Shown here in pieces: positions 25,723-53,958 of a DNA stretch of 64,000 nucleotides. The DNA is from Proteromonas lacertae. Taxonomy: Eukaryota. The stretch is taken from the NCBI GenBank assembly GCA_002245135.1, contig NGBS01000304.1:124001-188000 (forward strand), written 5' to 3'. Position 1 is the stretch's first letter. Each line of letters starts with the position of its first letter. The translations under genes and the position numbers were made by a program. The notes under the pieces are model-generated. The model was given only the letters and a program-made list of their open reading frames with translations. It did not search any database and was not told where the DNA came from.

Positions 25723-25753
<31 letters not shown>

Positions 25754-26609
25754 TATTGTTTATTATTATTTATAGTTGTGATGATGATGATGATGATTTA
25801 TTCGACAGACTCAAAAACAATTTCGTTGCTAGGAACACATTATTAAAATATTACAGTGTAACTGACAAAGCTAAATATATGAAAGCTTTAAGAACATTTG
25901 GCAAGCCAAAACAGAGTGTGATGCTGTTTTATGATGAAAGTTTTATTGATGAAGAGCATTTAGAGAAGAAACAAGACTTGATACAAATGATTAAAATGAT
26001 AAATGGAATACCAGAATATGAATTTGAAAAATTAGTATAATTTTAGTTATAATTAATAGATATGTCAAATATATGCACAATGTTTAGATTTACAAAATCA
26101 AGCCAGTACCAAGCTTATAGGATTATCCTTACAAAAAACAATGGAAAATTTAATCAGTAGAAATTCACAAGATTCATTAGCTTATGTTGAAAAGTATAAT
26201 TTTAATTTTATTATATAATAATTATTTTTTTTATTAGGTTAAAAACGTTAGGTTTAGTAAGTGATAAACGATATTTAATAATTAGAATATTTAGTTATTT
26301 ACATTATGGTATGGTTGACAATCTCCGTAAATTAGCCAATGATTTTAATAGAACATTAGGTTTCGAGCCTTTTATTGAGGCTTGTATGAAATGTGGAAAA
26401 AGAAATGAAGCATTATTTTACATCAACCAATTAAAAGATCAGAATTTAGCCAATAGTTATAAACAGCAATTAGGTGTAAATCAAAAACATCCATTGAAAG
26501 AGTTCTTTAAAGAAACATTTGGATTTGAAATAAATGGAAATAATAGTGATTACAGTTATAGAAAACCTGAGAATATATTTGGTAGGAGTGATGTAGAAAT
26601 GGCTGAAAA

Positions 26610-26642
<33 letters not shown>

Positions 26643-27141
26643 AGTAGAAGAAGAAGAAGAAGTAGAAGAATCTAATCCATTTGGTAATGATGATAATGAT
26701 AATGATAATCCATTTGGTGATTCATCATCTTTATCTTCTAATAAATCATATTTAAAACCACCACCACAATCATCATCATTCAATCAGAAATCTCTTTCTT
26801 CTATTGGTGAAGTAGAAACACCATTTTCATCAAGTAATGGAAGTGTTGAAGTTAATCCATTTGGAAGTGATGATAATATTGTCAATAAAAAACAAAGTAT
26901 TGATACAAGTAATCCATTTGGCAGAGAAAGCAATGCTTCAGAAGGTAATCCATTTGGCAGGGAGAGTGTTGCATCGGAAGGTAATCCATTTGGATCAGAT
27001 TCTATTGATGAAGGTAATCCATTTGCAAAGAGGCCTTCTGTTGATACTAATCCATTTGGTGGAGGTAGTAGTGGGGGAAGAGATAGAAGATCTTCTGTAG
27101 GTAATCCGTTTGGAGGATCTTTTGGAGATTGGTTTGATTAG
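23228..27141 (+). CDS. VPS16: Vps16-family (HOPS/CORVET) protein with Pro-rich N-terminal extension and NPF-repeat C-terminal tail, 5 introns
   Basis: MKWKLTDLSNYHIAISSYGGPIAII, KAASYGK, RTITYNEF...LVSRL, VSYPEIA, DTDLIFVV, VSDKRY, LGFEPFIEAC. Confidence 0.85.
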
Positions 27142-29074: not shown

Positions 29075-29136
29075 TGTAAAGCAACATTTTTTAGTGTAAA
29101 ATGGGGTATGAAAATTTACATACACCTAATTTTAAA

Positions 29137-30888
29137 ATGTCTCTATTTACATGTGGAATTGATCTAGGTACTACATATACATGTGTATCACATAAAAAAG
29201 GGGATAAAATTGAGTTTATCGATTTTGATAATGATAAAAGAAACTTCCCATCATATGTAGCTTTTAAAGATGAAGAAATAGTAGTAGGTGAAGTTGCTAA
29301 AAATCAAATATCTAGTAATCTAAAAAATACCATATATGATGCTAAAAGAATGATTGGTCATAAATTCAACGAAGAAGGGATTCAAGAAGATATAAAACAT
29401 TGGGGATTTGCTGTGGAAGAAGACAAAAATGATGGTGGCTGTTTAATTAGAGTAGAATATAAAGGCGAAGAATATAAAGCAAAACCTCAAGAAATATCAA
29501 GTCATGTATTATCAGCTGTATCAAAAAGGTTAATCAATCGTTATGCTATAGAAGAAGGTAAAACAATTCATGCTGTAATAACTGTTCCTGCTTATTTTAA
29601 TAATGAACAAAGAAAAGCAACAATTGAAGCAGGTGAATTAGCTGGTTTGAATGTATTACAGATAATAAATGAACCAACAGCAGCTGCTATTGCATATGGA
29701 TATAAATACTATAAAGGAAAAGAAGATCGAACAATCTTAGTATATGATTTTGGAGGTGGAACATTTGATGTTTCAATAATCGAAATCAAAAATCAAAAGA
29801 TAACTGTAAAAGCAACCGGTGGTGATACTCATTTAGGAGGTGAAGATATTAATCAAAACATTTTTAATTTCATTGTTAAAAGGATAAAAGATGCTAATGT
29901 AGATGTAGATATTACTTTAAATAGAAAGACAGAGTTAATGAAAGCAATAGAAGATACAAAAATTAAATTAAGTAAATATGATGAGAGTGATATATCATCC
30001 AGCATTTTGGAAGATTATGATATAGATCAGGAATTAAGTAGAGAAGATTTTAATCAAATAAATAAAGATATATTTGAAAAGACTATGAAAACAGTCGAAA
30101 AAGTATTAAATGAAAGTGGCTTAAGAAAAAATGATGTTGATGATGCTGTTCTAATTGGAGGAAGTAGTAGAATTCCTAAAATTCATGAATTGATGGAAGA
30201 TTTTTTCAATGGAAAAGTATTAAATCAAGATATAAATCCAGATGAAGCTGTAGCTTATGGTGCAGCAGTCTTAGCTGAAGATATTTTGAATGGAGTTCGA
30301 GAAGAAAAAGACAAAGATGGAAAAATCATATTAATAGACATGAAAACTAACAAAATATTAAATCCAAAAGATAGGATGCTTAAGTGTGTTGACCCTAAAG
30401 AAATAAACTCATGTAGTAGAAAAATGATAATACCAAATCAAAGTAGTGGAAGAAAGATTTTAGTTAGTGAAGGTCTTAAAGAACCAATAGAAGAAAGTAG
30501 TCAAAGAAAACTAATAATTGAAGAAATATTAACTCATAATATTGGTATTGATGTTATTAATAATGAATTTTCACCTATTCTAAAACATGGTAATAGAATT
30601 CCATATACCAACACTGAAAACTATACAACACCTTATGATAATATGAAAGTTGTGTCCATAAAATTCAACGAGGAAATTGATTCACAAGAAAAGAAATATG
30701 TATATATATTTAAGTATTTGTTGAAAATTAAACCACTTCCTGCTGGAGAAGTAAAATGTGATATAAAAATGACTCTGAATAAGAATGGTATACTTAATGT
30801 TGAAATAATACCGAAAAATTCTAATCATTTTGAAAAATGTGATTTAGAATTTGGAAGATGTGACGGAAACATTGTTATAAGAAAATAA
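29137..30888 (+). CDS. Divergent Hsp70, paralog B (no lid, no EEVD), intronless
   Basis: Same motifs as paralog A. Start placed at MSLFTCG (29137) by homology with A. Confidence 0.92.
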   Translation: MSLFTCGIDLGTTYTCVSHKKGDKIEFIDFDNDKRNFPSYVAFKDEEIVVGEVAKNQISSNLKNTIYDAKRMIGHKFNEEGIQEDIKHWGFAVEEDKNDGGCLIRVEYKGEEYKAKPQEISSHVLSAVSKRLINRYAIEEGKTIHAVITVPAYFNNEQRKATIEAGELAGLNVLQIINEPTAAAIAYGYKYYKGKEDRTILVYDFGGGTFDVSIIEIKNQKITVKATGGDTHLGGEDINQNIFNFIVKRIKDANVDVDITLNRKTELMKAIEDTKIKLSKYDESDISSSILEDYDIDQELSREDFNQINKDIFEKTMKTVEKVLNESGLRKNDVDDAVLIGGSSRIPKIHELMEDFFNGKVLNQDINPDEAVAYGAAVLAEDILNGVREEKDKDGKIILIDMKTNKILNPKDRMLKCVDPKEINSCSRKMIIPNQSSGRKILVSEGLKEPIEESSQRKLIIEEILTHNIGIDVINNEFSPILKHGNRIPYTNTENYTTPYDNMKVVSIKFNEEIDSQEKKYVYIFKYLLKIKPLPAGEVKCDIKMTLNKNGILNVEIIPKNSNHFEKCDLEFGRCDGNIVIRK

Positions 30889-30908: not shown

Positions 30909-33900
30909 TTATTTACAATTATTACAAAATGCTTCATTATTCTCTAAATCAACAATGCCACAATTATCGCAGAATATTTTCTTACATCTTGAACAATTCT
31001 ATTAAATAATAGTAAAACAAAAATATACAATAGGTAAAGAGAATTTCTCTAATTCTATATCCTTTTTACACACAACACATTTGAAAGATTTCTTTTTAGT
31101 TGGTGATGATTCTACAACACTTTCTGAAGCAGAGTTTTCCATTCTCATTACACGACTAATTTTCTATTAAAACATATATAAACAATATATTATACATCAA
31201 ATAAACTATCAATTTTCTTTACATCTTCTTTATTGTTTAATACCTTTTCTTTTGCTGTTACTGTTACTTTGGATACTTTATGAGTTATTTTCTTAGGCGA
31301 TTCAATTGGAGGTAAAGATGACAATGAGTATGAACTGTTTGGTTTGACATTACTATTTTCAATTTCATATTCTGCAGATATTGTTAGAGGAGATATAGGA
31401 ATTGAATCGTTTGAATATCTTTCATTATATAAAGTTGACTTCAATTTGTTAATTTCTTCATTAAGTAGGGTTATTTCATTATCTTTATGTTTTAGTATTT
31501 CATTTAATTTATCCACATCGTCTTTGCATTTACTTTCATTATATGCAATTATTCCCTCTAATTCCATTAATCTTGATTCAAACACACCATTATCACCTTC
31601 ATTTTCTATAATTTTTGACTTTTCTTTATTCTTATTTTCTGAGTTATTAATGCTATTGATCTGTAGCTTATTTCTTAATTCTGCATTCTCTTCCATTAAA
31701 TCTTCGTTTTCTTTCATCAAGTGTTGATTATCATCCAATAGTATACTTATCTTTTCGTCTTTTTCATTATCTTCTTCATTATTTTTTTTCTCATTTACTT
31801 CGACATTTTCTACTTTCACTTTATTTATCATCTTAAGTTCTTCATTCTCTTCTTCTTTTTTCAACAACTCATCTTTTAATTTGGATATCTCTTCATTCAA
31901 TCTTTCTTTCTCTTCTTTATTTATCATTTCTAATTCTTCTTTTAATGATTCAAACTCTTTTAATTTCTTATTTTTTATTTCATTCTCGATTTTCATTTTT
32001 TCTATTTCTTCTATTTTATGTTTTAGTTCTTCTTTTAATTTATCCATCTCTTCTTTATGAATACCTTCCATAACTGTCATCTCACCTTCTAATGCGATTA
32101 ATTTTGATTCTAATATACTATTATCACCTTCATTCTCTATATCTTTTGACATTTCTTTTTTTCGTTTATCTTCTTCTCTCATTGATTCATTATTGTTTTT
32201 CATTATTTCTAATTCATTTCGTAATTCTTTTATCTCTTCTAATAATTCTTCTTTTTCTTTAATTATTTCCGATAACTTGGATTTATCAGCATCTATCACT
32301 TCTTCTTCATATACTTTATTCTCACATGATTCTACTTTCTCTACTTTCACTTTATTCATCATCTTAAGTTCTTCATTTTCTTCCTCTTTCTTCATTAACT
32401 CTTCTTTCAATTTATACATCTCTTCACTCAATCTTTCATTTTCTTCTTTATTTTTTATATCATTTTTTATATCTATTTCTTTTTTCTTTAAATACATTAA
32501 CTCATTCTCTAATTCATTCTTTTCTTTTATTAATTCTTCATTATATAATCTTTCATTCTTATTTTCTTCTTTCAGTTTTTCTATTTCATCAATCATATCA
32601 ACATTTTTATCTCTCATTTCATTCAACTCTTTCTCGATTGATTCTCTCTTATTAAATTCATTTCGAATCAATTCATTATTCTTAACGATTCGTAATTTTT
32701 CTTTTTCTTTCATATCATTCATTTCTTTTAATAATAGATTTATCTCTTTCTCATTATCACATTTATCTTCAGATATATCTTCTTTTTTATTATTTATATT
32801 ACACTTTTCGACATCTTCTAACTTTTTACATAATTCAACTATATCATCTCGTAATCTATCATTCTCATGATTTAATCTCATTAATTCAGTATTTTCTTCT
32901 TTTAATTTCTTCTTATTATCTTTTAATTCTTTTTCTAAACGATTATTCTTATTACGAATCTCATTCATCTTATTAACACTTTCTCTTATTTCACTTTCTT
33001 TTACATTCAAGTTCTTTTTCAATATTTCCATCTCTTTTAATAATCTTTCATTTTCATTCTTTAATAACAATTTTTCTTTTTCTTTTTCTTTTAATTCGTC
33101 AATCTCTTTACTCTTCACTTCTAATTCATTCTTGTAATCTTTCATATCTTTTAACTCATTACTCAATTTCTTATTCTTTTCTAACATATTATACATTATC
33201 TCTTTGTATTTTAAACATTTATTTTCATTTTCTTTCTTGTCATTCACATTCTTTTCTTTCAATTCACATATTTCATTCTTTAATTCTTTCTCTCTATTCA
33301 TATCTTCTTCTCTCATTTCTTTTAATAATCTATCTTTCTCTTCTCTCATTATAATCATTTCAGCTTTTTCAGTCTTTAATCTTTCATTCTCTTTCTTATA
33401 TTTATTTAATCGATTATTTATCTCACACTCATTTTCTTCTTCTAATATCTTCTTTTGTTTCTTTAATTTTTCATTTGATACTCTCATTTGCTTTAATTCT
33501 TTTTCAAATATTTCATTACTCTTTTCCATCTTCATAGTTAAATTATTTATTTCATTTATATATTTTTCATTTTCATTCGTTTTATCTTTCACTTTATTTA
33601 TCTCATCTTTTAATAACTCTTCTAATTTATTCAATCTATTCTTCAATTTATTATTCTTATTTTCCATTTCTTTTAATCTATCATTCAATTTCACATTCTC
33701 TTTATTAACATCATTATCTTCATACATTTTTAGTTTTTCTTCTTTTAACTTATTCTCACTATTCAGCTTTCGTAATAATTCATTAAATTTTTCACTCTTA
33801 TTCTTATTTTCAACTTTCATCTCTTCCAACATTTTCTCTAATTCATTTACTTTAGCATCATCTTCATTTTCTTCTTTACATTTCAATATTTTATGAAGAT

Positions 33901-36900
33901 TTTCGATTTCTTTTCGTAAATTATCATTCTCTTTCATCATTACATTATATTTTTCTTCATATTCATCATCATCTTGTCTTAATAATTCACTATTTTCATT
34001 TAAATTATTATTCATTTTTAATATATCTTCTTCGTTTCTATCATCATTCTCATTTATTTCACTTAAACCAAGTATATCTCCTTTATAGATTACATTCTCT
34101 TCCACTTTCTCTTCTTTTCTTATCTTATTTATCTCATCTTCATATTTCAATATTTCTTTATCTAAGTCTTCTATCTCTTTACTCATTTCTTTGTTTTCTT
34201 TTAATAATTTATCTATTTCTTCTTTATATTCACTTTCTTTACTTTCTTTATTTTCACTTGTCTCATTTAATTTATCACAAAGACTAGAATTCATTCTCAT
34301 CATTTCAAGTAATCCATTGTCTTTGTTATTCAATTCTTTTTCTAATTCTTTATTTTCTTTGACTTTTTTAGCTAAATCATCTTTTAATATCTTTACATCA
34401 TTATTCAGTTTATCAACTTCTTCATTCAACTTCAACTTTGATTCTTCATTTTCTTTATTTATCTTTTCGAATTCTTCTTTTAATGAGTAGAATTCTTTCA
34501 ATTTTTCATCTTTTTCTTTCAGTTTTTCAGATAGATTTAATAGAATTTCTTTTGATTTATTATTTTTCATTTCTTCTTTATTTCTCATTTCTTCTATTAC
34601 ATTTTCTAATTCTTTTATCTTTTCATCTTTATTATCTACTCTTTCATTAGTATCTTCATTTTCTTCTTCATCTAGGACTATATTACTCTCATTATTGTTT
34701 TTCATTATTTCTAATTCATTTCGTAATTCTTTTATCTCTTCTAATAATTCTTCTTTTTCTTTAATTATTTCCGATAACTTGGATTTATCAGCATCTATCA
34801 CTTCTTCTTCATATACTTTATTCTCACATGATTCTACTTTCTCTACTTTCACTTTATTCATCATCTTAAGTTCTTCATTCTCTTCCTCTTTCTTCATTAA
34901 CTCTTCTTTCAATTTATACATCTCTTCACTCAATCTTTCATTTTCTTCTTTATTTTTTATATCATTTTTTATATCTATTTCTTTTTTCTTTAAATACATT
35001 AACTCATTCTCTAATTCATTCTTTTCTTTTATTAATTCTTCATTATATAATCTTTCATTCTTATTTTCTTCTTTCAGTTTTTCTATTTCATCAATCATAT
35101 CAACATTTTTATCTCTCATTTCATTCAACTCTTTCTCGATTGATTCTCTCTTATTAAATTCATTTCGAATCAATTCATTATTCTTAACGATTCGTAATTT
35201 TTCTTTTTCTTTCATATCATTCATTTCTTTTAATAATAGATTTATCTCTTTCTCATTATCACATTTATCTTCAGATATATCTTCTTTTTTATTATTTATA
35301 TTACACTTTTCGACATCTTCTAACTTTTTACATAATTCAACTATATCATCTCGTAATCTATCATTCTCATGATTTAATCTCATTAATTCAGTATTTTCTT
35401 CTTTTAATTTCTTCTTATTATCTTTTAATTCTTTTTCTAAACGATTATTCTTATTACGAATCTCATTCATCTTATTAACACTTTCTCTTATTTCACTTTC
35501 TTTTACATTCAAGTTCTTTTTCAATATTTCCATCTCTTTTAATAATCTTTCATTTTCATTCTTTAATAACAATTTTTCTTTTTCTTTTTCTTTTAATTCG
35601 TCAATCTCTTTACTCTTCACTTCTAATTCATTCTTGTAATCTTTCATATCTTTTAACTCATTACTCAATTTCTTATTCTTTTCTAACATATTATACATTA
35701 TCTCTTTGTATTTTAAACATTTATTTTCATTTTCTTTCTTGTCATTCACATTCTTTTCTTTCAATTCACATATTTCATTCTTTAATTCTTTCTCTCTATT
35801 CATATCTTCTTCTCTCATTTCTTTTAATAATCTATCTTTCTCTTCTCTCATTATAATCATTTCAGCTTTTTCAGTCTTTAATCTTTCATTCTCTTTCTTA
35901 TATTTATTTAATCGATTATTTATCTCACACTCATTTTCTTCTTCTAATATCTTCTTTTGTTTCTTTAATTTTTCATTTGATACTCTCATTTGCTTTAATT
36001 CTTTTTCAAATATTTCATTACTCTTTTCCATCTTCATAGTTAAATTATTTATTTCATTTATATATTTTTCATTTTCATTCGTTTTATCTTTCACTTTATT
36101 TATCTCATCTTTTAATAACTCTTCTAATTTATTCAATCTATTCTTCAATTTATTATTCTTATTTTCCATTTCTTTTAATCTATCATTCAATTTCACATTC
36201 TCTTTATTAACATCATTATCTTCATACATTTTTAGTTTTTCTTCTTTTAACTTATTCTCACTATTCAGCTTTCGTAATAATTCATTAAATTTTTCACTCT
36301 TATTCTTATTTTCAACTTTCATCTCTTCCAACATTTTCTCTAATTCATTTACTTTAGCATCATCTTCATTTTCTTCTTTACATTTCAATTTTATGAAGAT
36401 TTTCGATTTCTTTTCGTAAATTATCATTCTCTTTCATCATTACATTATATTTTTTCATATTCATCATCATCTTGTCTTAATAATTCACTATTTTCATTTA
36501 AATTATTATTCATTTTTAATATATCTTCTTCGTTTCTATCATCATTCTCATTTATTTCACTTAAACCAAGTATATCTCCTTTATAGATTACATTCTCTTC
36601 CACTTTCTCTTCTTTTCTTATCTTATTTATCTCATCTTCATATTTCAATATTTCTTTATCTAAGTCTTCTATCTCTTTACTCATTTCTTTGTTTCTTTTA
36701 ATAATTTATCTATTTCTTCTTTATATTCACTTTCTTTACTTTCTTTATTTTCACTTGTCTCATTTAATTTATCACAAAGACTAGAATTCATTCTCATCAT
36801 TTCAAGTAATCCATTGTCTTTGTTATTCAATTCTTTTTCTAATTCTTTATTTTCTTTGACTTTTTTAGCTAAATCATCTTTTAATATCTTTACATCATTA

Positions 36901-39900
36901 TTCAGTTTATCAACTTCTTCATTCAACTTCAACTTTGATTCTTCATTTTCTTTATTTATCTTTCGAATTCTTCTTTTAATGAGTAGAATTCTTTCATTTT
37001 TCATCTTTTTCTTTCAGTTTTTCAGATAGATTTAATAGAATTTCTTTTGATTTATTATTTTTCATTTCTTCTTTATTTCTCATTTCTTCTATTACATTTC
37101 TAATTCTTTTATCTTTTCATCTTTATTATCTACTCTTTCATTAGTATCTTCATTTTCTTCTTCATCTAGGACTATATTACTCTCATTATTGTTTTTCATT
37201 ATTTCTAATTCATTTCGTAATTCTTTTATCTCTTCTATAATTCTTCTTTTTCTTTAATTATTTCCGATAACTTGGATTTATCAGCATCTATCACTTCTTC
37301 TTCATATACTTTATTCTCACATGATTCTACTTTCTCTACTTTCACTTTATTCATCATCTTAAGTTCTTCATTCTCTTCCTCTTTCTTCATTAACTCTTCT
37401 TTCAATTTATACATCTCTTCACTCAATCTTTCATTTTCTTCTTTATTTTTTATATCATTTTTTATATCTATTTCTTTTTTCTTTAAATACATTAACTCAT
37501 TCTCTAATTCATTCTTTTCTTTTATTAATTCTTCATTATATAATCTTTCATTCTTATTTTCTTCTTTCAGTTTTTCTATTTCATCAATCATATCAACATT
37601 TTTATCTCTCATTTCATTCAACTCTTTCTCGATTGATTCTCTCTTATTAAATTCATTTCGAATCAATTCATTATTCTTAACGATTCGTAATTTTTTCTTT
37701 TTCTTTCATATCATTCATTTCTTTTAATAATAGATTTATCTCTTTCTCATTATCACATTTATCTTCAGATATATCTTCTTTTTTATTATTTATATTACAC
37801 TTTTCGACATCTTCTAACTTTTTACATAATTCAACTATATCATCTCGTAATCTATCATTCTCATGATTTAATCTCATTAATTCAGTATTTTCTTCTTTTA
37901 ATTTCTTCTTATTATCTTTTAATTCTTTTTCTAAACGATTATTCTTATTACGAATCTCATTCATCTTATTAACACTTTCTCTTATTTCACTTTCTTTTAC
38001 ATTCAAGTTCTTTTTCAATATTTCCATCTCTTTTAATAATCTTTCATTTTCATTCTTTAATAACAATTTTTCTTTTTCTTTTTCTTTTAATTCGTCAATC
38101 TCTTTACTCTTCACTTCTAATTCATTCTTGTAATCTTTCATATCTTTTAACTCATTACTCAATTTCTTATTCTTTTCTAACATATTATACATTATCTCTT
38201 TGTATTTTAAACATTTATTTTCATTTTCTTTCTTGTCATTCACATTCTTTTCTTTCAATTCACATATTTCATTCTTTAATTCTTTCTCTCTATTCATATC
38301 TTCTTCTCTCATTTCTTTTAATAATCTATCTTTCTCTTCTCTCATTATAATCATTTCAGCTTTTTCAGTCTTTAATCTTTCATTCTCTTTCTTATATTTA
38401 TTTAATCGATTATTTATCTCACACTCATTTTCTTCTTCTAATATCTTCTTTTGTTTCTTTAATTTTTCATTTGATACTCTCATTTGCTTTAATTCTTTTC
38501 AAATATTTCATTACTCTTTTCCATCTTCATAGTTAAATTATTTATTTCATTTATATATTTTTCATTTTCATTCGTTTTATCTTTCACTTTATTTATCTCA
38601 TCTTTTAATAACTCTTCTAATTTATTCAATCTATTCTTCAATTTATTATTCTTATTTTCCATTTCTTTTAATCTATCATTCAATTTCACATTCTCTTTAT
38701 TAACATCATTATCTTCATACATTTTTAGTTTTTCTTCTTTTAACTTATTCTCACTATTCAGCTTTCGTAATAATTCATTAAATTTTTCACTCTTATTCTT
38801 ATTTTCAACTTTCATCTCTTCCAACATTTTCTCTAATTCATTTACTTTAGCATCATCTTCATTTTCTTCTTTACATTTCAATATTTTATGAAGATTTTCG
38901 ATTTCTTTTCGTAAATTATCATTCTCTTTCATCATTACATTATATTTTTCTTCATATTCATCATCATCTTGTCTTAATAATTCACTATTTTCATTTAAAT
39001 TATTATTCATTTTTAATATATCTTCTTCGTTTCTATCATCATTCTCATTTATTTCACTTAAACCAAGTATATCTCCTTTATAGATTACATTCTCTTCCAC
39101 TTTCTCTTCTTTTCTTAGTTTATTCAATTCATTTTCATATTTCAATATTTCATTATGTAATTCCTCATTCTCTTTCTTCAATTCTTTTAATTTGTTTTTC
39201 TTTTCACTACTAAACTGACTAACATTATTCTTTAATTTTTCAAATATATTACTATTTTCTTCAGTACTTTCAATTATCAATGGAAGATTAACAGAACCTC
39301 TTCTTGAGAAAAAATTATTATTATTATTATTAGTTTGTTGTTTCTGTAATTTTACATTTGCTATATCAGTTTTCATCTTTTCTATTTCCTTCAAATTGTC
39401 TTTATAACTACAAATTAACGAATTAATTATATTATCTTCTTTAGATAACTTATAAATCAAATCAATGACCTCATTACTTGGATTTGAATGAGATGCGAAA
39501 TATTCTGAAATATATATAGGTAGTATATTTTCCGACTGAATTATTGGAATTCCAAGTATTTCTATATCATTAGATATGAATTCAAAATGATTTCTATGAA
39601 GTTGTAAGATTGATGAGATATTCATTTCTGTTTCTTTCATTATTTCATATTGACTTTTAAGCTTTGCTTGTAGTTCATCATTCTCAGCTTCTAACTTCAT
39701 CATTTTTTCAATAGATTCATCCAACGCATTAGATAAATATAATACTTGATCACTATCTGCTGTTGATATTAATTCATTTTCACTGGCAGACAAATGAGAT
39801 ACACTTTCAAAGACTATTATGTCAAAATTTATCAATTCATTTGTTTGAATGGTTTTATTACTTTCATTAGTAATTTGAATATTATTAATTTGTGATCTTA

Positions 39901-42900
39901 AATCATCTATTTCTCTTTCAAATTGATTGTTTTCTTCAATCATTTTTGTTATTCTATTGTTCAATAATTCTTCATTTTTCTCTTTTTCATTCTTTATTCA
40001 TTCAATTGATTCTCTAATTCAGTAATTTTCTTTTTATTATCTTCTTCCATTTCTTTTACTTTGGTTGTATATTCATTTTCATTATCTTTTAGTATCTTTT
40101 CAACATCATTTAATTTTATTACCATATAACTCAAATTCTCCTCAAGATCTTTCTTTTCATTCTTCAAAGCAGAAATAATTATATTTTGTTTATCAATTTT
40201 TGCTTTATTATAGTCTTTTAATTTATTATATTCAATTTCTCTATCATCTTTTTCTTGGATTAAGTTTTTATTTGTTTCTTTAATACTTTCTAATTCAGTC
40301 TTTATACTTCTTATTTTCATTTCATTTTCATCATTAATATCCACTAGCATTTTTGATTTTTCATTCAATTCTTCATTTATATTCTCCAATTTTGATATTC
40401 TACTCATTAGACTATCAACTTTATTCTTCATAAACTCATATTCAACCTTTATATTACACATCTGTTGGTTCAAATCTTCAATATACATTAGACTTTTCTC
40501 CTTTTCACATTTAATATATTCAACTTTTTCTTCCATTACTTCAAATGAATTATCTAACTTACTTTCTTCTACCATACTATTATCATTACTACAACTTTCT
40601 TCAATTTTACTATTATCAAATGATTTTATAAGATTTTTGATTCTTCTATTATCTTTCTTCAATAATGAAATCGAATTGTTTTTCTTTTCAATCTCATCTT
40701 TTGATTCTGAAATAATATACCTAAATTCTGTAATATCTATTGCTAGTTTTTCATTACTATTATTCAGTTCTTCCAATTCACAATTTAATTCGTTTATTGT
40801 AAACATATTATCGTTTGAAAGAGCTTCAAATTCTTTTTCCATATTTATCTTCTTCTTTTCTAATTCATCTTTAGAGACTTTTATTTCTTCTATTTCCTTT
40901 GTTAAATTGCTTATTTCTAAATTTTTATTTTCTATTATTTCTTCTTTCTGTTTCAATATAACTTCATCATTACTCTTTATTTCATTTTTAATCTTTATTA
41001 ATTCATACTTTTCATACCTCAATGTGTCTATTTCTTCTTCTTTCATAACTATTTCTTCATTTATTATTTGTAACTCATTTTTATTCTTATCTAATAATTC
41101 ATTTAACTCAATCATTATTCTTTCATTATTATTTATTTCTGTTTCTTTAGATTGTAATATAATGTTAAGGTTATTAATACTTTCATTGATTTGTATATTT
41201 TCTTCTTCAACTTCTTTCATTCTACCTTCAATTTATTAAATGTCTCTCTCATCATATCATTTTCTTTCTTTACTTGATCTATTTCATTTGCAAATTTGTA
41301 TTATTATCACTCAACTTTGTAATTTGATTTTTCAATTCGTTATTTTCAAATTTCAAAATATTATTATATTCCATTAAAGATGTAACATCACTTGTTAACT
41401 TTTCTATATTTTCACTGAATTCTTTATTACTAATTTCTAATGCTTCTTTATCATTTTTAATTCTCACATAATCATCTTCAATACAAGCTTTATCTAAGTA
41501 TAATTTCGCAAGCTCTTCTTTAATTTCAATTATTTTTTCAGATAATATTTTGAATTATACACTTCATCATCATAGTTTTTGGTTATTCTATTTAACACAT
41601 CATTTTTACAACTAAGTTCATAATTAAGACTAGATATAACTTCATTCAATCTTCGTAATTCATCTTTCAATTTATTTAACTCATCTTCATTTATTTCAAC
41701 TTTTTCTTTTACTTTCATTTCTTCTAATTCAACTTCATTTTTTACATCTTTTACTTTACTCATTTCTTCACTTTCTTTATTCTCACTTTCTAACTTATAT
41801 CGACTTAATTCTTCTTTCAATTCTTCATTCTCTTTCAATAAATCTTCTAATCGATCAGCATCTAACACTTTTATACTTTCTTTAACTTCTTCTTTATTAC
41901 TTTCTTTATCTTTTAGTTCATCATAGTATTTCTTTTCATTCTTTACACTCTCGTTTAATAACATCTCTAATCGATTGTTTTCTTCATTCAATCTTCGTAA
42001 TTCATCTTTCAATTTATTTAACTCATCTTCATTTACTTCAACTTTTTCTTTTACTTTCATTTCTTCGAATTCAACTTCATTTTTTACATCTTTTACTTTA
42101 CTCATTTCTTCACTTTCTTTATTCTCACTTTCTAACTTATATCGACTTAATTCTTCTTTCAATTCTTCATTCTCTTTCAATAAATCTTCTAATCGATCAG
42201 CATCTAACACTTTTATACTTTCTTTAACTTCTTCTTTATTATTTTCTTTATCTTTTAGTTCATCATAGTATTTCTTTTCATTCTTTACACTCTCGTTTAA
42301 TAACATCTCTAATCGATTGTTTTCTTCATTCAATCTTCGTAATTCATCTTTCAATTTATTTAACTCATCTTCATTTACTTCAACTTTTTCTTTTACTTTC
42401 ATTTCTTCGAATTCAACTTCATTTTTTACATCTTTTACTTTACTCATTTCTTCACTTTCTTTATTCTCACTTTCTAACTTATATCGACTTAATTCTTCTT
42501 TCAATTCTTCATTCTCTTTCAATAAATCTTCTAATCGATCAGCATCTAACACTTTTATACTTTCTTTAACTTCTTCTTTATTATTTTCTTTATCTTTTAG
42601 TTCATCATAGTATTTCTTTTCATTCTTTACACTCTCGTTTAATAACATCTCTAATCGATTGTTTTCTTCATTCAATCTTCGTAATTCATCTTTCAATTTA
42701 TTTAACTCATCTTCATTTACTTCAACTTTTTCTTTTACTTTCATTTCTTCGAATTCAACTTCATTTTTTACATCTTTTACTTTACTCATTTCTTCACTTT
42801 CTTTATTCTCACTTTCTAACTTATATCGACTTAATTCTTCTTTCAATTCTTCATTCTCTTTCAATAAATCTTCTAAATCGATCAGCATCTAACACTTTTA

Positions 42901-45900
42901 TACTTTCTTTAACTTCTTCTTTATTATTTTCTTTATCTTTTAGTTCATCATAGTATTTCTTTTCATTCTTTACACTCTCGTTTAATAACATCTCTAATCG
43001 ATTGTTTTCTTCATTCAATCTTCGTAATTCATCTTTCAATTTATTTAACTCATCTTCATTTACTTCAACTTTTTCTTTTACTTTCATTTCATCAAGTTCT
43101 TTCTTCATTCTTCATTTTCTTTCAATACATTACCACTTCTTCTCGAATCTTTTCTATATCTTCTTCACTTTCATATATTTTTCTTCTATATCTTCATTCA
43201 TATTCTATCATTTCCAACATTTCTTTGTTTAATCGTAACTCTTCTTCTTCATTCAATTTTCTTTTCTATTTCATTACAAAACCAAGTTTTTCACTTTTAT
43301 AGATAAACTATATTATTCTTCTTTATTACTTTGCATTTTCATTTTCTTTAATCTTTCTTTCAATTTTCATTCTCTTTCAATAATCTTCTATCGTCAGCAT
43401 CTAACTTTTTATCTTTCTTTTATTCTTCTTTATTTATTTTCTTTATCTTTTAGTTCATCATAGTATTCTTTTCATTCTTTACACTCTCGTTTAATAACAT
43501 CTCTAATCGATTGTTTTCTTCATTCAATCTTCGTAATTCATCTTTCAATTTATTTAACTCATCTTCATTTACTTCAACTTTTCTTTTACTTTCATTTCTT
43601 CGAATTCAACTTCATTTTTTACATCTTTTACTTTACTCATTTCTTCACTTTCTTTATTCTCACTTTCTAACTTATATCGACTTAATTCTTCTTTCAATTC
43701 TTCATTCTCTTTCAATAAAATCTTCTAATCGATCAGCATCTAACACTTTTTATACTTTCTTTAACTTCTTCTTTATTATTTTCTTTATCTTTTAGTTCAT
43801 CATAGTATTCTTTTCATTCTTTTACACTCTCGTTTAATAACATCTCTAATCGATTGTTTTCTTCATTCAATCTTCGTAATTCATCTTTCAATTTATTTAA
43901 CTCATCTTCATTTACTTCACTTTTTCTTTTACTTTCATTTCTTCGAATTCAACTTCATTTTTTACATCTTTTACTTACTCATTTCTTCACTTTCTTTATT
44001 CTCACTTTCTAACTTATATCGACTTAATTCTTCTTTCAATTCTTCATTCTCTTTCAATAAATCTTCTAATCGATCAGCATCTAACACTTTTATACTTTCT
44101 TTAACTTCTTCTTTATTATTTTCTTTATCTTTTAGTTCATCATAGTATTTCTTTTCATTTTTACACTCTCGTTTAATAACATCTCTAATCGATTGTTTTC
44201 TTCATTCAATCTTCGTATTCATCTTTCAATTTATTTAACTCATCTTCATTTACTTCAACTTTTTCTACTTTTTTCATCTTTTTTCTTCATTTTCTTTCAA
44301 TAACATTACCACTTCTTCTCGAATCTTTCTATATTTCTTCACTTTCATATATTTCTTCTTCTATTCTTCATTCATTCTATCATTTCAACATTTCTTTGTT
44401 TATCTACTTTCTTTCATTCATTCTTCACTTTCTATTTCATTACTCAATTCTTCACTTTATAATCTATTATTCTTCTATTACTTTGCATTTCATTTCTTAA
44501 TCTTCTTCAATCTCATTCTCTTTCAATAAATCTTCTAATCGATCAGCATCTAACACTTTTATACTTTCTTTAACTTCTTCTTTATTATTTTCTTTATCTT
44601 TTAGTTCATCATAGTATTTCTTTTCATTCTTTACACTCTCGTTTAATAACATCTCTAATCGATTGTTTTCTTCATTCAATCTTCGTAATTCATCTTTCAA
44701 TTTATTTAACTCATCTTCATTTACTTCAACTTTTTCTTTTACTTTCATTTCTTCGAATTCAACTTCATTTTTTACATCTTTTACTTTACTCATTTCTTCA
44801 CTTTCTTTATTCTCACTTTCTAACTTATATCGACTTAATTCTTCTTTCAATTCTTCATTCTCTTTCAATAAATCTTCTAATCGATCAGCATCTAACACTT
44901 TTATACTTTCTTTAACTTCTTCTTTATTATTTTCTTTATCTTTTAGTTCATCATAGTATTTCTTTTCATTCTTTACACTCTCGTTTAATAACATCTCTAA
45001 TCGATTGTTTTCTTCATTCAATCTTCGTAATTCATCTTTCAATTTATTTAACTCATCTTCATTTACTTCAACTTTTTCTTTTACTTTCATTTCTTCGAAT
45101 TCAACTTCATTTTTTACATCTTTTACTTTACTCATTTCTTCACTTTCTTTATTCTCACTTTCTAACTTATATCGACTTAATTCTTCTTTCAATTCTTCAT
45201 TCTCTTTCAATAAATCTTCTAATCGATCAGCATCTAACACTTTTATACTTTCTTTAACTTCTTCTTTATTATTTTCTTTATCTTTTAGTTCATCATAGTA
45301 TTTCTTTTCATTCTTTACACTCTCGTTTAATAACATCTCTAATCGATTGTTTTCTTCATTCAATCTTCGTAATTCATCTTTCAATTTATTTAACTCATCT
45401 TCATTTACTTCAACTTTTTCTTTTACTTTCATTTCTTCGAATTCAACTTCATTTTTTACATCTTTTACTTTACTCATTTCTTCACTTTCTTTATTCTCAC
45501 TTTCTAACTTATATCGACTTAATTCTTCTTTCAATTCTTCATTCTCTTTCAATAAATCTTCTAATCGATCAGCATCTAACACTTTTATACTTTCTTTAAC
45601 TTCTTCTTTATTATTTTCTTTATCTTTTAGTTCATCATAGTATTTCTTTTCATTCTTTACACTCTCGTTTAATAACATCTCTAATCGATTGTTTTCTTCA
45701 TTCAATCTTCGTAATTCATCTTTCAATTTATTTAACTCATCTTCATTTACTTCAACTTTTTCTTTTACTTTCATTTCTTCGAATTCAACTTCATTTTTTA
45801 CATCTTTTACTTTACTCATTTCTTCACTTTCTTTATTCTCACTTTCTAACTTATATCGACTTAATTCTTCTTTCAATTCTTCATTCTCTTTCAATAAAAT

Positions 45901-48900
45901 CTTCTAATCGATCAGCATCTAACACTTTTATACTTTCTTTAACTTCTTCTTTATTATTTTCTTTATCTTTTAGTTCATCATAGTATTTCTTTTCATTCTT
46001 TACACTCTCGTTTAATAACATCTCTAATCGATTGTTTTCTTCATTCAATCTTCGTAATTCATCTTTCAATTTATTTAACTCATCTTCATTTACTTCAACT
46101 TTTTCTTTTACTTTCATTTCTTCGAATTCAACTTCATTTTTTACATCTTTTACTTTACTCATTTCTTCACTTTCTTTATTCTCACTTTCTAACTTATATC
46201 GACTTAATTCTTCTTTCAATTCTTCATTCTCTTTCAATAAATCTTCTAATCGATCAGCATCTAACACTTTTATACTTTCTTTAACTTCTTCTTTATTATT
46301 TTCTTTATCTTTTAGTTCATCATAGTATTTCTTTTCATTCTTTACACTCTCGTTTAATAACATCTCTAATCGATTGTTTTCTTCATTCAATCTTCGTAAT
46401 TCATCTTTCAATTTATTTAACTCATCTTCATTTACTTCAACTTTTTCTTTTACTTTCATTTCTTCGAATTCAACTTCATTTTTTACATCTTTTACTTTAC
46501 TCATTTCTTCACTTTCTTTATTCTCACTTTCTAACTTATATCGACTTAATTCTTCTTTCAATTCTTCATTCTCTTTCAATAAATCTTCTAATCGATCAGC
46601 ATCTAACACTTTTATACTTTCTTTAACTTCTTCTTTATTATTTTCTTTATCTTTTAGTTCATCATAGTATTTCTTTTCATTCTTTACACTCTCGTTTAAT
46701 AACATCTCTAATCGATTGTTTTCTTCATTCAATCTTCGTAATTCATCTTTCAATTTATTTAACTCATCTTCATTTACTTCAACTTTTTCTTTTACTTTCA
46801 TTTCTTCGAATTCAACTTCATTTTTTACATCTTTTACTTTACTCATTTCTTCACTTTCTTTATTCTCACTTTCTAACTTATATCGACTTAATTCTTCTTT
46901 CAATTCTTCATTCTCTTTCAATAAATCTTCTAATCGATCAGCATCTAACACTTTTATACTTTCTTTAACTTCTTCTTTATTATTTTCTTTATCTTTTAGT
47001 TCATCATAGTATTTCTTTTCATTCTTTACACTCTCGTTTAATAACATCTCTAATCGATTGTTTTCTTCATTCAATCTTCGTAATTCATCTTTCAATTTAT
47101 TTAACTCATCTTCATTTACTTCAACTTTTTCTTTTACTTTCATTTCTTCGAATTCAACTTCATTTTTTACATCTTTTACTTTACTCATTTCTTCACTTTC
47201 TTTATTCTCACTTTCTAACTTATATCGACTTAATTCTTCTTTCAATTCTTCATTCTCTTTCAATAAATCTTCTAATCGATCAGCATCTAACACTTTTATA
47301 CTTTCTTTAACTTCTTCTTTATTATTTTCTTTATCTTTTAGTTCATCATAGTATTTCTTTTCATTCTTTACACTCTCGTTTAATAACATCTCTAATCGAT
47401 TGTTTTCTTCATTCAATCTTCGTAATTCATCTTTCAATTTATTTAACTCATCTTCATTTACTTCAACTTTTTCTTTTACTTTCATTTCTTCTAATTCAAC
47501 TTCATTTTTTACATCTTTTACTTTACTCATTTCTTCACTTTCTTTATTCTCACTTTCTAACTTATATCGACTTAATTCTTCTTTCAATTCTTCATTCTCT
47601 TTCAATAAATCTTCTAATCGATCAGCATCTAACACTTTTATACTTTCTTTAACTTCTTCTTTATTATTTTCTTTATCTTTTAGTTCATCATAGTATTTCT
47701 TTTCATTCTTTACACTCTCGTTTAATAACATCTCTAATCGATTGTTTTCTTCATTCAATCTTCGTAATTCATCTTTCAATTTATTTAACTCATCTTCATT
47801 TACTTCAACTTTTTCTTTTACTTTCATTTCTTCGAATTCAACTTCATTTTTTACATCTTTTACTTTACTCATTTCTTCACTTTCTTTATTCTCACTTTCT
47901 AACTTATATCGACTTAATTCTTCTTTCAATTCTTCATTCTCTTTCAATAAATCTTCTAATCGATCAGCATCTAACACTTTTATACTTTCTTTAACTTCTT
48001 CTTTATTATTTTCTTTATCTTTTAGTTCATCATAGTATTTCTTTTCATTCTTTACACTCTCGTTTAATAACATCTCTAATCGATTGTTTTCTTCATTCAA
48101 TCTTCGTAATTCATCTTTCAATTTATTTAACTCATCTTCATTTACTTCAACTTTTTCTTTTACTTTCATTTCTTCGAATTCAACTTCATTTTTTACATCT
48201 TTTACTTTACTCATTTCTTCACTTTCTTTATTCTCACTTTCTAACTTATATCGACTTAATTCTTCTTTCAATTCTTCATTCTCTTTCAATAAATCTTCTA
48301 ATCGATCAGCATCTAACACTTTTATACTTTCTTTAACTTCTTCTTTATTATTTTCTTTATCTTTTAGTTCATCATAGTATTTCTTTTCATTCTTTACACT
48401 CTCGTTTAATAACATCTCTAATCGATTGTTTTCTTCATTCAATCTTCGTAATTCATCTTTCAATTTATTTAACTCATCTTCATTTACTTCAACTTTTTCT
48501 TTTACTTTCATTTCTTCGAATTCAACTTCATTTTTTACATCTTTTACTTTACTCATTTCTTCACTTTCTTTATTCTCACTTTCTAACTTATATCGACTTA
48601 ATTCTTCTTTCAATTCTTCATTCTCTTTCAATAAATCTTCTAATCGATCAGCATCTAACACTTTTATACTTTCTTTAACTTCTTCTTTATTATTTTCTTT
48701 ATCTTTTAGTTCATCATAGTATTTCTTTTCATTCTTTACACTCTCGTTTAATAACATCTCTAATCGATTGTTTTCTTCATTCAATCTTCGTAATTCATCT
48801 TTCAATTTATTTAACTCATCTTCATTTACTTCAACTTTTTCTTTTACTTTCATTTCTTCGAATTCAACTTCATTTTTTACATCTTTTACTTTACTCATTT

Positions 48901-51900
48901 CTTCACTTTCTTTATTCTCACTTTCTAACTTATATCGACTTAATTCTTCTTTCAATTCTTCATTCTCTTTCAATAAATCTTCTAATCGATCAGCATCTAA
49001 CACTTTTATACTTTCTTTAACTTCTTCTTTATTATTTTCTTTATCTTTTAGTTCATCATAGTATTTCTTTTCATTCTTTACACTCTCGTTTAATAACATC
49101 TCTAATCGATTGTTTTCTTCATTCAATCTTCGTAATTCATCTTTCAATTTATTTAACTCATCTTCATTTACTTCAACTTTTTCTTTTACTTTCATTTCAT
49201 CAAGTTCTTTCTTCATTTCTTCATTTTCTTTCAATAACATTACCACTTCTTCTCGAATCTTTTCTATATCTTCTTCACTTTCATATATTTCTTCTTCTAT
49301 ATCTTCATTCATATTCTCATCATTTCCAAACATTTCTTTGTTTAATCGTAACTCTTCTTCTTCATTCAATTCTTCATTTCTATTTCATTACACAAACCAA
49401 GTTTTTCACTTTTATAGATAACTATATTATTCTTCTTTATTACTTTGGCATTTTCCATTTTCTTTAATCTTTCTTTCAATTCTTCATTCTCTTTCAATAA
49501 ATCTTCTAATCGATCAGCATCTAACACTTTTATACTTTCTTTAACTTCTTCTTTATTATTTTCTTTATCTTTTAGTTCATCATAGTATTTCTTTTCATTC
49601 TTTACACTCTCGTTTAATAACATCTCTAATCGATTGTTTTCTTCATTCAATCTTCGTAATTCATCTTTCAATTTATTTAACTCATCTTCATTTACTTCAA
49701 CTTTTTCTTTTACTTTCATTTCTTCGAATTCAACTTCATTTTTTACATCTTTTACTTTACTCATTTCTTCACTTTCTTTATTCTCACTTTCTAACTTATA
49801 TCGACTTAATTCTTCTTTCAATTCTTCATTCTCTTTCAATAAATCTTCTAATCGATCAGCATCTAACACTTTTATACTTTCTTTAACTTCTTCTTTATTA
49901 TTTTCTTTATCTTTTAGTTCATCATAGTATTTCTTTTCATTCTTTACACTCTCGTTTAATAACATCTCTAATCGATTGTTTTCTTCATTCAATCTTCGTA
50001 ATTCATCTTTCAATTTATTTAACTCATCTTCATTTACTTCAACTTTTTCTTTTACTTTCATTTCTTCGAATTCAACTTCATTTTTTACATCTTTTACTTT
50101 ACTCATTTCTTCACTTTCTTTATTCTCACTTTCTAACTTATATCGACTTAATTCTTCTTTCAATTCTTCATTCTCTTTCAATAAATCTTCTAATCGATCA
50201 GCATCTAACACTTTTATACTTTCTTTAACTTCTTCTTTATTATTTTCTTTATCTTTTAGTTCATCATAGTATTTCTTTTCATTCTTTACACTCTCGTTTA
50301 ATAACATCTCTAATCGATTGTTTTCTTCATTCAATCTTCGTAATTCATCTTTCAATTTATTTAACTCATCTTCATTTACTTCAACTTTTTCTTTTACTTT
50401 CATTTCTTCGAATTCAACTTCATTTTTTACATCTTTTACTTTACTCATTTCTTCACTTTCTTTATTCTCACTTTCTAACTTATATCGACTTAATTCTTCT
50501 TTCAATTCTTCATTCTCTTTCAATAAATCTTCTAATCGATCAGCATCTAACACTTTTATACTTTCTTTAACTTCTTCTTTATTATTTTCTTTATCTTTTA
50601 GTTCATCATAGTATTTCTTTTCATTCTTTACACTCTCGTTTAATAACATCTCTAATCGATTGTTTTCTTCATTCAATCTTCGTAATTCATCTTTCAATTT
50701 ATTTAACTCATCTTCATTTACTTCAACTTTTTCTTTTACTTTCATTTCTTCGAATTCAACTTCATTTTTTACATCTTTTACTTTACTCATTTCTTCACTT
50801 TCTTTATTCTCACTTTCTAACTTATATCGACTTAATTCTTCTTTCAATTCTTCATTCTCTTTCAATAAATCTTCTAATCGATCAGCATCTAACACTTTTA
50901 TACTTTCTTTAACTTCTTCTTTATTATTTTCTTTATCTTTTAGTTCATCATAGTATTTCTTTTCATTCTTTACACTCTCGTTTAATAACATCTCTAATCG
51001 ATTGTTTTCTTCATTCAATCTTCGTAATTCATCTTTCAATTTATTTAACTCATCTTCATTTACTTCAACTTTTTCTTTTACTTTCATTTCTTCGAATTCA
51101 ACTTCATTTTTTACATCTTTTACTTTACTCATTTCTTCACTTTCTTTATTCTCACTTTCTAACTTATATCGACTTAATTCTTCTTTCAATTCTTCATTCT
51201 CTTTCAATAAATCTTCTAATCGATCAGCATCTAACACTTTTATACTTTCTTTAACTTCTTCTTTATTATTTTCTTTATCTTTTAGTTCATCATAGTATTT
51301 CTTTTCATTCTTTACACTCTCGTTTAATAACATCTCTAATCGATTGTTTTCTTCATTCAATCTTCGTAATTCATCTTTCAATTTATTTAACTCATCTTCA
51401 TTTACTTCAACTTTTTCTTTTACTTTCATTTCATCAAGTTCTTTCTTCATTTCTTCATTTTCTTTCAATAACATTACCACTTCTTCTCGAATCTTTTCTA
51501 TATCTTCTTCACTTTCATATATTTCTTCTTCTATATCTTCATTCATATTCTCATCATTTCCAAACATTTCTTTGTTTAATCGTAACTCTTCTTCTTCATT
51601 CAATTCTTCATTTTCTATTTCATTACACAAACCAAGTTTTTCACTTTTATAGATAACTATATTATTCTTCTTTATTACTTTGGCATTTTCCATTTTCTTT
51701 AATCTTTCTTTCAATTCTTCATTCTCTTTCAATAAATCTTCTAATCGATCATTATCATCATCGACAGTAAGTTCATTTTCACTCAATTTGTTCTTCAATA
51801 ATTCAATTTCTTCTTCCAAGTTACACTTATCTTCATTCAATTCATTGATTTCATTCTCTAAGTTTTTAATCTTTTCATTATCTATCACTATATCTCCATT

Positions 51901-53958
51901 ACTGTTATTATCCTTCATTTTCTTTTCTGTTTCTTTTTTATTAAACATCTCCTTTAACTCAACAAGTGTTGGAAGTTTCAATTTATTTTCACTTTTATTT
52001 TCATCTTTTTTCATTTTCAATAAACTATTCTCTTTCGCTAATTCATGATTATTTTTAGCCAAATCATTTATTTCTCTTTCTTTCTTTTCTATAATGTTAT
52101 TTAGATCATCAATTTTATATTCTAATTCTTTTAATTCTTTCCCATTGTTATTACTGTTGAAAAATACATTTTCTTCTTTTATTTTTTTGTCATTCATCTT
52201 TTCATCATCTAACTTCTTCTTTAACTCAATAATTGTTTTATTCAACTCGATAACTCTGTTATTTAAACTATCATTATCATCTTCTAACATTTCATTAAGT
52301 TCTTTCATTTCTTGTAGATCTTTTTCTAGTTGCTTTACTCTATCTTCTTTTTCTTCTATTTCTGTGTTATTATTATTATTTTGTTGCTTATTTTCATTTT
52401 CTAATTTAACTTTCTTTTCTTCTTCATCATCATCGTCTAATAAAATCTCTTCTTCTTCTGAATCATCACTTGAATTGCTTTGATTTTTATTCTTTTCTAC
52501 CGTTTCTTCTTCATTTTCTAATGGAATTTCTTCTTCATCATCGCTTGAATTATCATTTTCTTCTTCTATTTTTGCTACTTCTTTTTCTAATGTAGTTTCA
52601 TTAACATTCTTCATCTCTTCACTCTCTTTATTCTCTTTTTCCACTTTCAACATGTTTAGCTCTTCTTTTAAATCTTCATTCTCTGATTTTAATGTCTTTA
52701 TTTCTTCCTTTAATTCATTCATTAATTTTTCATAATTATCATCTTTATTTTCTTCTTTCATAATATCACTTTCACTGTTCAATTCATTCATCATCTCATC
52801 ACTATTTTCATTAACTATTCTCAACTTTTCTTCTAATTCACTATTAGATGGCATATTTTCAGCTTGAACACTTTCAAGCCTATGTAATTTCTCTTTCAAT
52901 TTCTTACAATTCAAACATTCATCTTCATTATCTGTTTTGTCATTATCTTCTTCATTTGAAATATAGACATCTTCATTTGTCATTTCATAATTTTCTCTGT
53001 ATTGTGACATTTTATTTTTCATATTCTCTAACTCAGTGTATAACATATGTACTACAGATTTAGACACTGTTTTCATTGTACTAAACTGTTTATCATATTG
53101 AGAATATATTAAATTCTCCTTCAATTCATACTGATGCTTATATAAATCAAATTGAAGTTGTACTTTATAGTTATCCATCTTCAATGATTCATTCTCTTTT
53201 GATATATAAGACAATTTCTTTTCATAACTACTAATAGTTTCATTAATTGTCTTTTCGTGATCTTTTATAGTCTTTTCTGATAATTTCTCTGTTTCTTTAA
53301 ATTTTGAGATAATTTCATTCAATCTTTTTATCTCACTCTCTTTATTTAACGATTCAAGTTCTAAAGCTCGAATATCGGCTTGAAGCTTTTTCACTTTTTC
53401 ATCTTTTTCTTTACATAAATCACAAGCATATGGTAAACTTTTATCATAAGTGATGGTGAATTGTAAATGATTAGCTTTATCATTCATTACTTTAACAATT
53501 GAGTCAAGGTTTGCTGTTGATATTTTCGATGGAATTTGATTCAATTCTTTCTTGTATTCTTCTAGACTTTTCTTTGTTACATCAACTTCTCCAATTCGTC
53601 CTGAAATGAAAGATAACAAGTTATCCACTTCAATAGTTTCACCTGTGTATGTAAGATCAGAATATTTGTTTGAAATAACCTCATTGTATTTCTCTTCATA
53701 AAGTTGTTTTTCTGACTCTAGACGCTTGATTGTTCTAAGGAACTTTCGTTTTTCTTGTTCGAACTGTCTTGTAACTTTTTTTAATTCCTCAGTTTGTTGA
53801 ACAACCACTAATTTGTATTGCTGTGTTTGTAAATATGGATCAGTGATGTCTGGTGATATGTATTTCACATAATCAGGAATGGCTCCAAATCCCTATAATT
53901 AAAGATAAAAAAAAATAAATACTGTATCCAGGCTAGACTTTGTCTGCTGATCACTCAT
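30909..53958 (-). CDS. Giant (about 7,600 aa) Glu/Lys/Asn-rich coiled-coil protein with two tandem-repeat arrays and a C-terminal FYVE-like zinc finger; broken by probable assembly frameshifts
   Basis: ATG at 53958, intron 53893-53922. Consecutive same-strand ORFs abut at single-base homopolymer indels, which are absent from intact repeat copies where comparison is possible. Introns 31164-31195 and 30999-31028 add an 8-Cys domain; TAA at 30909. Confidence 0.75.
32190..39120. repeat. Tandem array of a 2502-nt (834-aa) unit, about 2.8 copies
   Basis: Identical antisense ORFs at 32193/34695 and 33204/35706 (offset 2502). Third copy at about 37190-39120. Confidence 0.93.
41640..51750. repeat. 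Tandem array of a 342-nt (114-aa) unit, about 27 near-identical copies in four blocks, each preceded (in coding direction) by a repeated spacer of about 280 nt
   Basis: Identical antisense ORFs recur every 342 nt. Spacers at about 43090-43370, 44270-44510, 49200-49480 and 51430-51715. Confidence 0.95.

Follow-up and report, generated by a model that had tools for sequence, protein, structure and literature searches.

The question raised by contig NGBS01000304.1 of the protist Proteromonas lacertae (assembly GCA_002245135.1) is whether a region broken into many open reading frames (ORFs) can encode a single giant protein. The window analysed comprises 64,000 nucleotides (nt) of this contig (positions 124,001 to 188,000), and all coordinates given below are those of the window. 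A first-pass annotation had proposed that positions 30909 to 53958 hold one gene of about 7,600 codons, on one strand and with only three introns, all near its ends, for a continuous coiled coil that could approach 1 micrometre. The analysis described here indicates that the organism likely carries a single intact gene at this locus, damaged only in the assembly; as judged from sequence and structural models, there is about an even chance that its product is a structural strut, i.e., a cytoskeletal or organelle-linking fibre with a zinc-finger anchor.

The reading path was traced with a frameshift- and intron-aware procedure, using a codon model trained on the clean ORFs of the same locus. The best path lies on the minus strand and runs from an ATG at 53958, which has a TAA in frame 21 nt upstream, to a TAA at 30911-30909; it comprises 7,671 codons without a stop, or 7,681 if clean copies of the repeats serve for the count, and requires 45 frame changes and three putative introns. 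The strand stands out in composition, with a GC skew between -0.3 and -0.8 per kb from 31 to 53 kb. The coordinates, single strand, approximate codon number and intron count proposed earlier all stand. The three putative introns (53922-53893, 31195-31164 and 31028-30999, of 30, 32 and 30 nt) share the form GTAT...ATAG and lie near the gene ends; 12 similar candidates of 25-104 nt were called by the same method in 15 flanking genes. What does not stand is an open frame across the locus. Translation of the assembled sequence from the ATG stops after 1,520 amino acids (aa), the minus strand of the locus breaks up into nine ORFs of 150 aa or more (the largest of 1,747, 1,508 and 1,167 aa), and 19 pieces of 45 aa or more are spread over three frames, with successive ORFs abutting or overlapping in shifted frames. 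The first-pass annotation had counted stops splitting the locus as evidence against its own proposal; such breaks are present, it had not flagged them, and it is their error signature that leads us to set them aside.

The 45 frame changes are distributed as 32 in a first repeat array, four in a unique central spacer and nine in a second repeat array. When the arrays were scored against clean sister copies, 71 indel events (63 of them deletions; deletion bias p 1e-11) were counted together with nine substitution sites. Array 1 accounts for 62 of the events (55 deletions and 7 insertions) with eight substitution calls, and array 2 for nine (8 deletions) with one substitution site. Sixty of the 62 array-1 indels fall within 1,637 nt (42877-44513), while uniform placement gave a maximum of 26 in 20,000 draws. 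Linker copies 3 and 4 of this array are eroded; in copy 3, some 30 small deletions spread over 250 nt have removed about 57 nt, whereas substitutions number only 3. Natural gene decay gives mostly substitutions. Because deletion-biased, clustered indels far outnumber substitutions, the breaks are likely consensus errors, of the kind that insufficient polishing of long reads leaves in repeats. Some substitutions recur in sister copies (47492/41725 and 37373/34880), as would be expected of real variants.

The alternative is that the breaks are real, and that the locus is a young null allele or pseudogene, or yields a truncated 1,520-aa product after array slippage. The 45 frame changes are present in the sequence as assembled, and several observations weigh against an origin in error. 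Error and real mutation were told apart by the pattern of the changes; four breaks occur in the 2,452 nt of unique spacer versus one in 21,723 nt of the 15 flanking genes (p 5e-4), which are almost clean, in a comparison that favours few breaks in the flanking genes because these were picked from ORF limits; and the spacer breaks sit in unique DNA, where polishing should be easier. Moreover, two indels are each shared by two copies, at an identical position of the unit (45899/43720 and 43809/43467), which fits systematic error as well as real inherited variants. Finally, only 3 of the 71 indels keep the frame, so that the indels, if real, would kill the gene. Decay of this kind is, however, difficult to reconcile with an excess of indels over substitution sites of about 8:1, with 89% deletions in tight clusters, and with a single linker copy as eroded as the one described above; in addition, the head, the tail, the splice sites and all eight cysteines of the terminal finger are intact, and no nonsense substitution occurs in the reading path. 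Real breaks are thus considered quite improbable.

Three further ways of accounting for the breaks were rejected. Stop read-through or another genetic code does not apply, given that the breaks are frame changes and the flanking genes use the standard code; the breaks are not tiny introns, as the same letters stand in frame in sister copies; and programmed frameshifting would involve 45 sites that are not common to the copies. The sole frame change called in the flanking genes lies in a kinase gene (55140-55120, minus strand); about 20 nt there are bounded by GT and AG and may be a very short intron, under the 25-nt limit used for introns.

Taken as one gene, the locus would be divided, from start to stop, into the following parts:

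53923..53958, minus strand: exon 1, with the start ATG (12 codons), from the reading path.
53893..53922, minus strand: putative intron 1, 30 nt, phase 0, GTAT...ATAG, from the reading path.
51752..53892, minus strand: unique head of about 714 aa, helical, without frame break; it carries two CxxC motifs, one at 53424 and one at 52917, as well as an acidic region of low complexity.
41640..51751, minus strand: array 1, about 3,390 aa, proline-free, made of 342-nt units and 321-nt linkers, each unit predicted as a helix of about 100 aa plus a hinge.
42877..44513, minus strand: error-dense zone inside array 1.
39188..41639, minus strand: unique central spacer of about 818 aa, with the highest heptad cover (92%) and four single-base frame breaks.
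32186..39187, minus strand: array 2, in which a 2,502-nt (834-aa) unit occurs about 2.8 times.
31196..32185, minus strand: unique tail without frame break, a degenerate repeat-derived coiled coil followed by a Ser/Pro-rich linker.
31164..31195, minus strand: putative intron 2, 32 nt, from the reading path.
31029..31163, minus strand: exon 3, 45 codons, where a short basic patch is encoded and the finger begins with its first CxxC (31079).
30999..31028, minus strand: putative intron 3, 30 nt, phase 0, within the zinc finger, from the reading path.
30909..30998, minus strand: exon 4, with three further CxxC pairs and the stop, as read in the sequence.

The unique head amounts to 726 aa when exon 1 is included, and the whole tail to 404 aa, closing with eight cysteines; the spacer holds one short proline-containing non-coiled stretch near 39550-39280. 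The first-pass annotation had overlooked the C-terminal finger with its eight cysteines, the pair of CxxC motifs in the N-terminal part and the nested history of the repeats.

The spacer is also the place where the locus might be split into two adjacent genes. Three of its four frame breaks (near 41547, 41290 and 41225; the other is near 39996), none of them with a sister copy for comparison, cluster with a stop in or near the gap 41530-41220, and an ATG lies near 41220. Nevertheless, these 310 nt are coding-like in composition (A 48.9, T 28.6% versus A 42.3, T 39.9% in the upstream intergenic region), with no T-rich intergenic stretch, and the region's two longest heptad runs (94 and 87 aa) fall within them. 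Given that the composition is the same in head, spacer and tail, and that the only candidate gap is coding-like, one gene is favoured, and a division into two is hardly credible.

About 74% of the chain is made of the two near-identical arrays. Array 1 contains 24 full 342-nt (114-aa) units, three partial 204-nt copies, a 78-nt stub and four linkers of 321 nt (107 aa), which are irregularly spaced, after 5, 13 and 2 full units; of its 25 units measured from anchor to anchor, 18 agree in every letter. An older period of about 177 aa persists in array 2 and in the tail (33 matching trimers versus 7-11 in 5 shuffles), which suggests that the gene grew by repeated internal duplication. The middle of the protein would accordingly be a passive spacer grown by unequal crossing-over, first of a unit of about 177 aa and then of the 834-aa and the 114/175-aa units, and the same process may keep the arrays homogeneous.

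The true repeat copy number is uncertain, as the worst-damaged zone falls inside array 1. It has to be considered, then, that the gene is real and its arrays mis-assembled, so that the protein would be shorter (down to about 3,000 aa, or 0.45 µm), longer or variable between alleles. Array 1 is a stretch of 10.1 kb of near-identical units, and the erosion of linkers 3 and 4 resembles the shifted-register polishing of a poor join; the non-redundant content, with each unit counted once, is 3,003 aa. There is also a precedent in the available account of the trypanosome protein FAZ10, which ran at about 2,000 kDa versus 502 kDa annotated, and for which the authors suggest possible mis-assembly (PMC5358337). 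On the other hand, unique DNA anchors both arrays of the Proteromonas gene on each side, and copy-specific substitutions together with the irregular linker spacing mark distinct copies. Assemblers, besides, collapse repeats more often than they inflate them. Mis-assembly on this scale is rather unlikely.

If intact, the chain would have a mass of about 920 kDa, an isoelectric point (pI) of 4.76 and a net charge of -683. It is rich in E (22.8%), K (16.8%), N (11.9%) and L (11.7%), and so poor in P (0.3%) that there are proline-free runs of 4,157 and 2,632 aa. No membrane helix was found, the best hydropathy window across the chain being 1.26. With a simple a/d score, heptads cover 84% of the residues versus 19-25% in three local shuffles, and form 205 single-register runs with a median of 37 aa. 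A single-sequence AlphaFold model of three 114-aa units shows helices at residues 3-53, 69-167, 182-282 and 296-341, with a hinge at an identical place in each unit, where the predicted local distance difference test (pLDDT) score is below 50; the mean pLDDT is 74.9 and the predicted template modelling score (pTM) is 0.22. The head was modelled as helices and low-confidence loops, without a globular domain (mean pLDDT 57.5). Because the heptad registers are short and a hinge appears in every unit, the protein is predicted to be a segmented, jointed coiled-coil rod. A continuous coiled coil, as proposed earlier, is not borne out, the longest single-register run being of only 94 aa. The prediction of a rod has itself to be read with some caution: the heptad score is a home-made measure and not COILS, single-sequence AlphaFold readily yields helices for E/K-rich chains, the pTM is low, the model of the head is weak, and a net charge of this size could disfavour pairing. 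Dimer formation is assumed from the heptads.

At 0.1485 nm per residue, the contour length would reach 1,139 nm if every residue is counted, 957 nm if the count is limited to heptad-covered ones, and 446 nm with each array reduced to a single copy; a rod of 0.45-1.1 µm is therefore predicted, hinging on the true copy number, and its end-to-end length in the cell would be shorter than the contour length. The earlier value of about 1 micrometre is fair as an upper bound, with the qualification that the rod is segmented and the copy number uncertain.

The C-terminal finger has eight cysteines with gaps 2-14-2-4-2-11-2 and no histidine, a spacing that resembles that of FYVE-type fingers, for which WxxD and RVC are further characteristic motifs. 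In FYVE fingers, the signature R(R/K)HHCR binds phosphatidylinositol 3-phosphate (PI3P), according to the account in PMC12943756. The signature and both motifs are absent from the finger described here, and no FYVE (PF01363) match was obtained at E up to 5 in a family scan of the finger, so that it agrees with Pfam FYVE members in cysteine spacing, and in neither the PI3P signature nor an above-cut-off match. No family match of any kind rose above its cut-off. The best were Siva (E 0.0028, 17.8 bits versus a cut-off of 26.2) and the RING protein RNF125 (E 0.11), followed by weak matches to FYVE_2, the Rab-effector finger of rabphilin and RIM (E 1.5, 9.5 bits versus a cut-off of 27.2), and to the RIM2 finger (E 4.6); all these scores were lowered by a 10-codon intron still contained in the query. 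It is best described as a two-zinc finger without an assigned family, which likely acts as a protein-binding anchor.

These features bear on a further alternative, in which the intact rod would tether membranes over long distances in the manner of EEA1 and the golgins, its finger binding a small GTPase or a lipid and its head another membrane. Hinged rods suit tethers, and the weak likeness to FYVE_2 and RIM2 points in the same direction. EEA1, as described in PMC12943756, has 1,411 aa, measures about 200 nm and ends in a FYVE finger; the Proteromonas protein shares with it the layout of a long coiled coil closing in an eight-cysteine, FYVE-spaced finger, with zinc-binding motifs at the N-terminal end too. 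It differs in that it lacks the PI3P signature and a FYVE match, is five times longer, and contains near-identical arrays, which in the published accounts are typical of NUP-1 and FAZ10. Siva and the RING protein, moreover, score as well as or better than FYVE_2 and RIM2. A tether of this type is unlikely, although it ranks second to the structural strut. Of the first-pass proposal of a giant tether or cytoskeletal filament, a single gene for a giant extended coiled coil is retained as the best reading, modified by the segmentation of the rod and the 45 breaks.

Under the interpretation as a structural strut, helical segments of 40-100 residues would pair as two-stranded coiled coils with short hinges between them, and the C-terminal zinc finger, perhaps together with the two N-terminal CxxC motifs, would bind partner proteins and not PI3P. 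The fibre would be held at its ends, presumably as a parallel dimer. It had also been proposed that length is set by repeat number; this is trivially so for the chain, while a ruler function is conjectural. A single chain of about 0.9 MDa, nearly all of it coiled coil, that spans about 1 micrometre between two organelles of a flagellated protist (e.g., basal body and nucleus), anchored by a lineage-specific zinc finger and serving as a ruler retuned by unequal crossing-over of 114- and 834-residue units, is quite improbable.

Homologues were sought mainly with the unique parts. The head gave no match at E 0.001 among 1.84 billion representative proteins, none among 6,071 candidates when compared with proteins of 581-2,000 aa, and none confirmed out of 110 pattern matches in metagenome contigs; part of the spacer gave none among 4,517 candidates from proteins of 467-2,000 aa. 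A look-up in the ESM Atlas returned only clusters without names, with low recognition. The repeat units were searched against Pfam only, and the matches obtained there (DUF6026, SOGA and DUF3658) were rejected, since their scores add up from many weak matches to coiled coil, with no or only short passing stretches. No Pfam match to the rootletin family was found in six large pieces of the chain, and a literature search, with subscription journals outside its coverage, found no published work on this protein.

Comparison with known proteins was made by design. Giant repetitive coiled-coil genes of AT-rich protists are an already described class, of which this case is longer: the predicted protein is mostly coiled coil, lacks a membrane helix and exceeds 400 kDa, and its lineage-restricted sequence has near-identical internal repeats between unique ends. 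The nearest in design are NUP-1 and FAZ10 of Trypanosoma brucei; they may work alike, and kinship is not claimed. In the account available, NUP-1, of the nuclear lamina, has a pI of 5.07, is nearly all coiled coil and carries 17 near-perfect 144-aa repeats, amounting to about 400 nm at 0.15 nm per residue (PMC3313915). Both proteins are acidic (pI 5.07 versus 4.76) and lineage-restricted, with central repeats of similar size (17 x 144 versus 24 x 114 aa); however, the gene described here is about twice as long, has two arrays with a spacer and an eight-cysteine finger, and encodes only a short basic patch near its end, whereas NUP-1 is nuclear. FAZ10, of the flagellum attachment zone, is reported to carry 52 copies of a 35-aa repeat (PMC5358337), and its central region to be a parallel dimer (bioRxiv 10.64898/2026.05.05.722045). 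The likeness extends to a head, two repeat-filled coiled-coil blocks around a unique centre, a tail, the lack of a membrane helix, a true size made uncertain by repeats, and a flagellated host; the repeats differ (35 versus 114/834 aa), as does the lineage, and the passages on FAZ10 drawn upon mention no zinc finger. Rootletin and root fibres are looser analogues, as long, parallel coiled-coil proteins that build fibres in cells with flagella; protist rootlets are described as using SF-assemblin or centrin (PMC8435291), and neither these domains nor a family match were seen here.

The window has a GC content of 21-33% per kb, short introns and the standard code; its intron size and AT content resemble those of the Blastocystis/Proteromonas group. 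The neighbours of the giant gene are ordinary eukaryotic genes and include Vps16, eIF3a, Brix/RPF2, Myb, two HSP70-like genes, a kinase and a He_PIG protein, with no evident functional link to it. A CCDC153/DRC12 homologue of the flagellar nexin-dynein regulatory complex (16396-17064, minus strand; E 1.8e-11 to PDB 8th8_S, Atlas lead 0.80) suggests a host that likely bears motile flagella, with the root fibres that belong to them; in Blastocystis, nearly all flagellar genes are reported to be lost (PMC12129017), which speaks against that genus. The nearest matches to RPF2 stand at 92, 89 and 68%, and named proteins at 47% or less. The HSP70-like genes (27290-29074 and 29095-30888, plus strand) are tandem, intron-less and divergent, 74.6% alike over 1,252 nt and 20 nt apart, and the second ends 20 nt from the stop of the giant gene, on the opposite strand. 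Other duplications are a tandem one of about 519 nt, 98.9% identical and gap-free, in a Thr/Ser/Cys-rich gene (58201-59253, plus strand) with a hydrophobic tail and no Pfam family, and two tandem tetratricopeptide repeat paralogues (7680-8369 and 8978-9679, plus strand; 71.5% alike over 565 nt). The Vps16 homologue (23468-27141, plus strand) has a Pro-rich start and a C-terminal NPF-repeat extension (Pfam NPF E 0.0039, below cut-off), and the He_PIG (putative Ig) repeat protein (61153-64000, minus strand) is open at the window end; its tail is acidic, and a single membrane helix is predicted in it.

As it stands, this is one more giant repetitive coiled-coil gene of a described class. It also points to a blind spot, in that consensus errors cut such genes into many ORFs, and protein databases keep no trace of them. 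If intact, the chain would be about twice as long as NUP-1 and five times as long as EEA1, and would lend itself to testing whether a distance on the micron scale in a cell is set by how many repeats a single coiled-coil protein carries; alleles or relatives that differ in copy number would supply that test ready-made.

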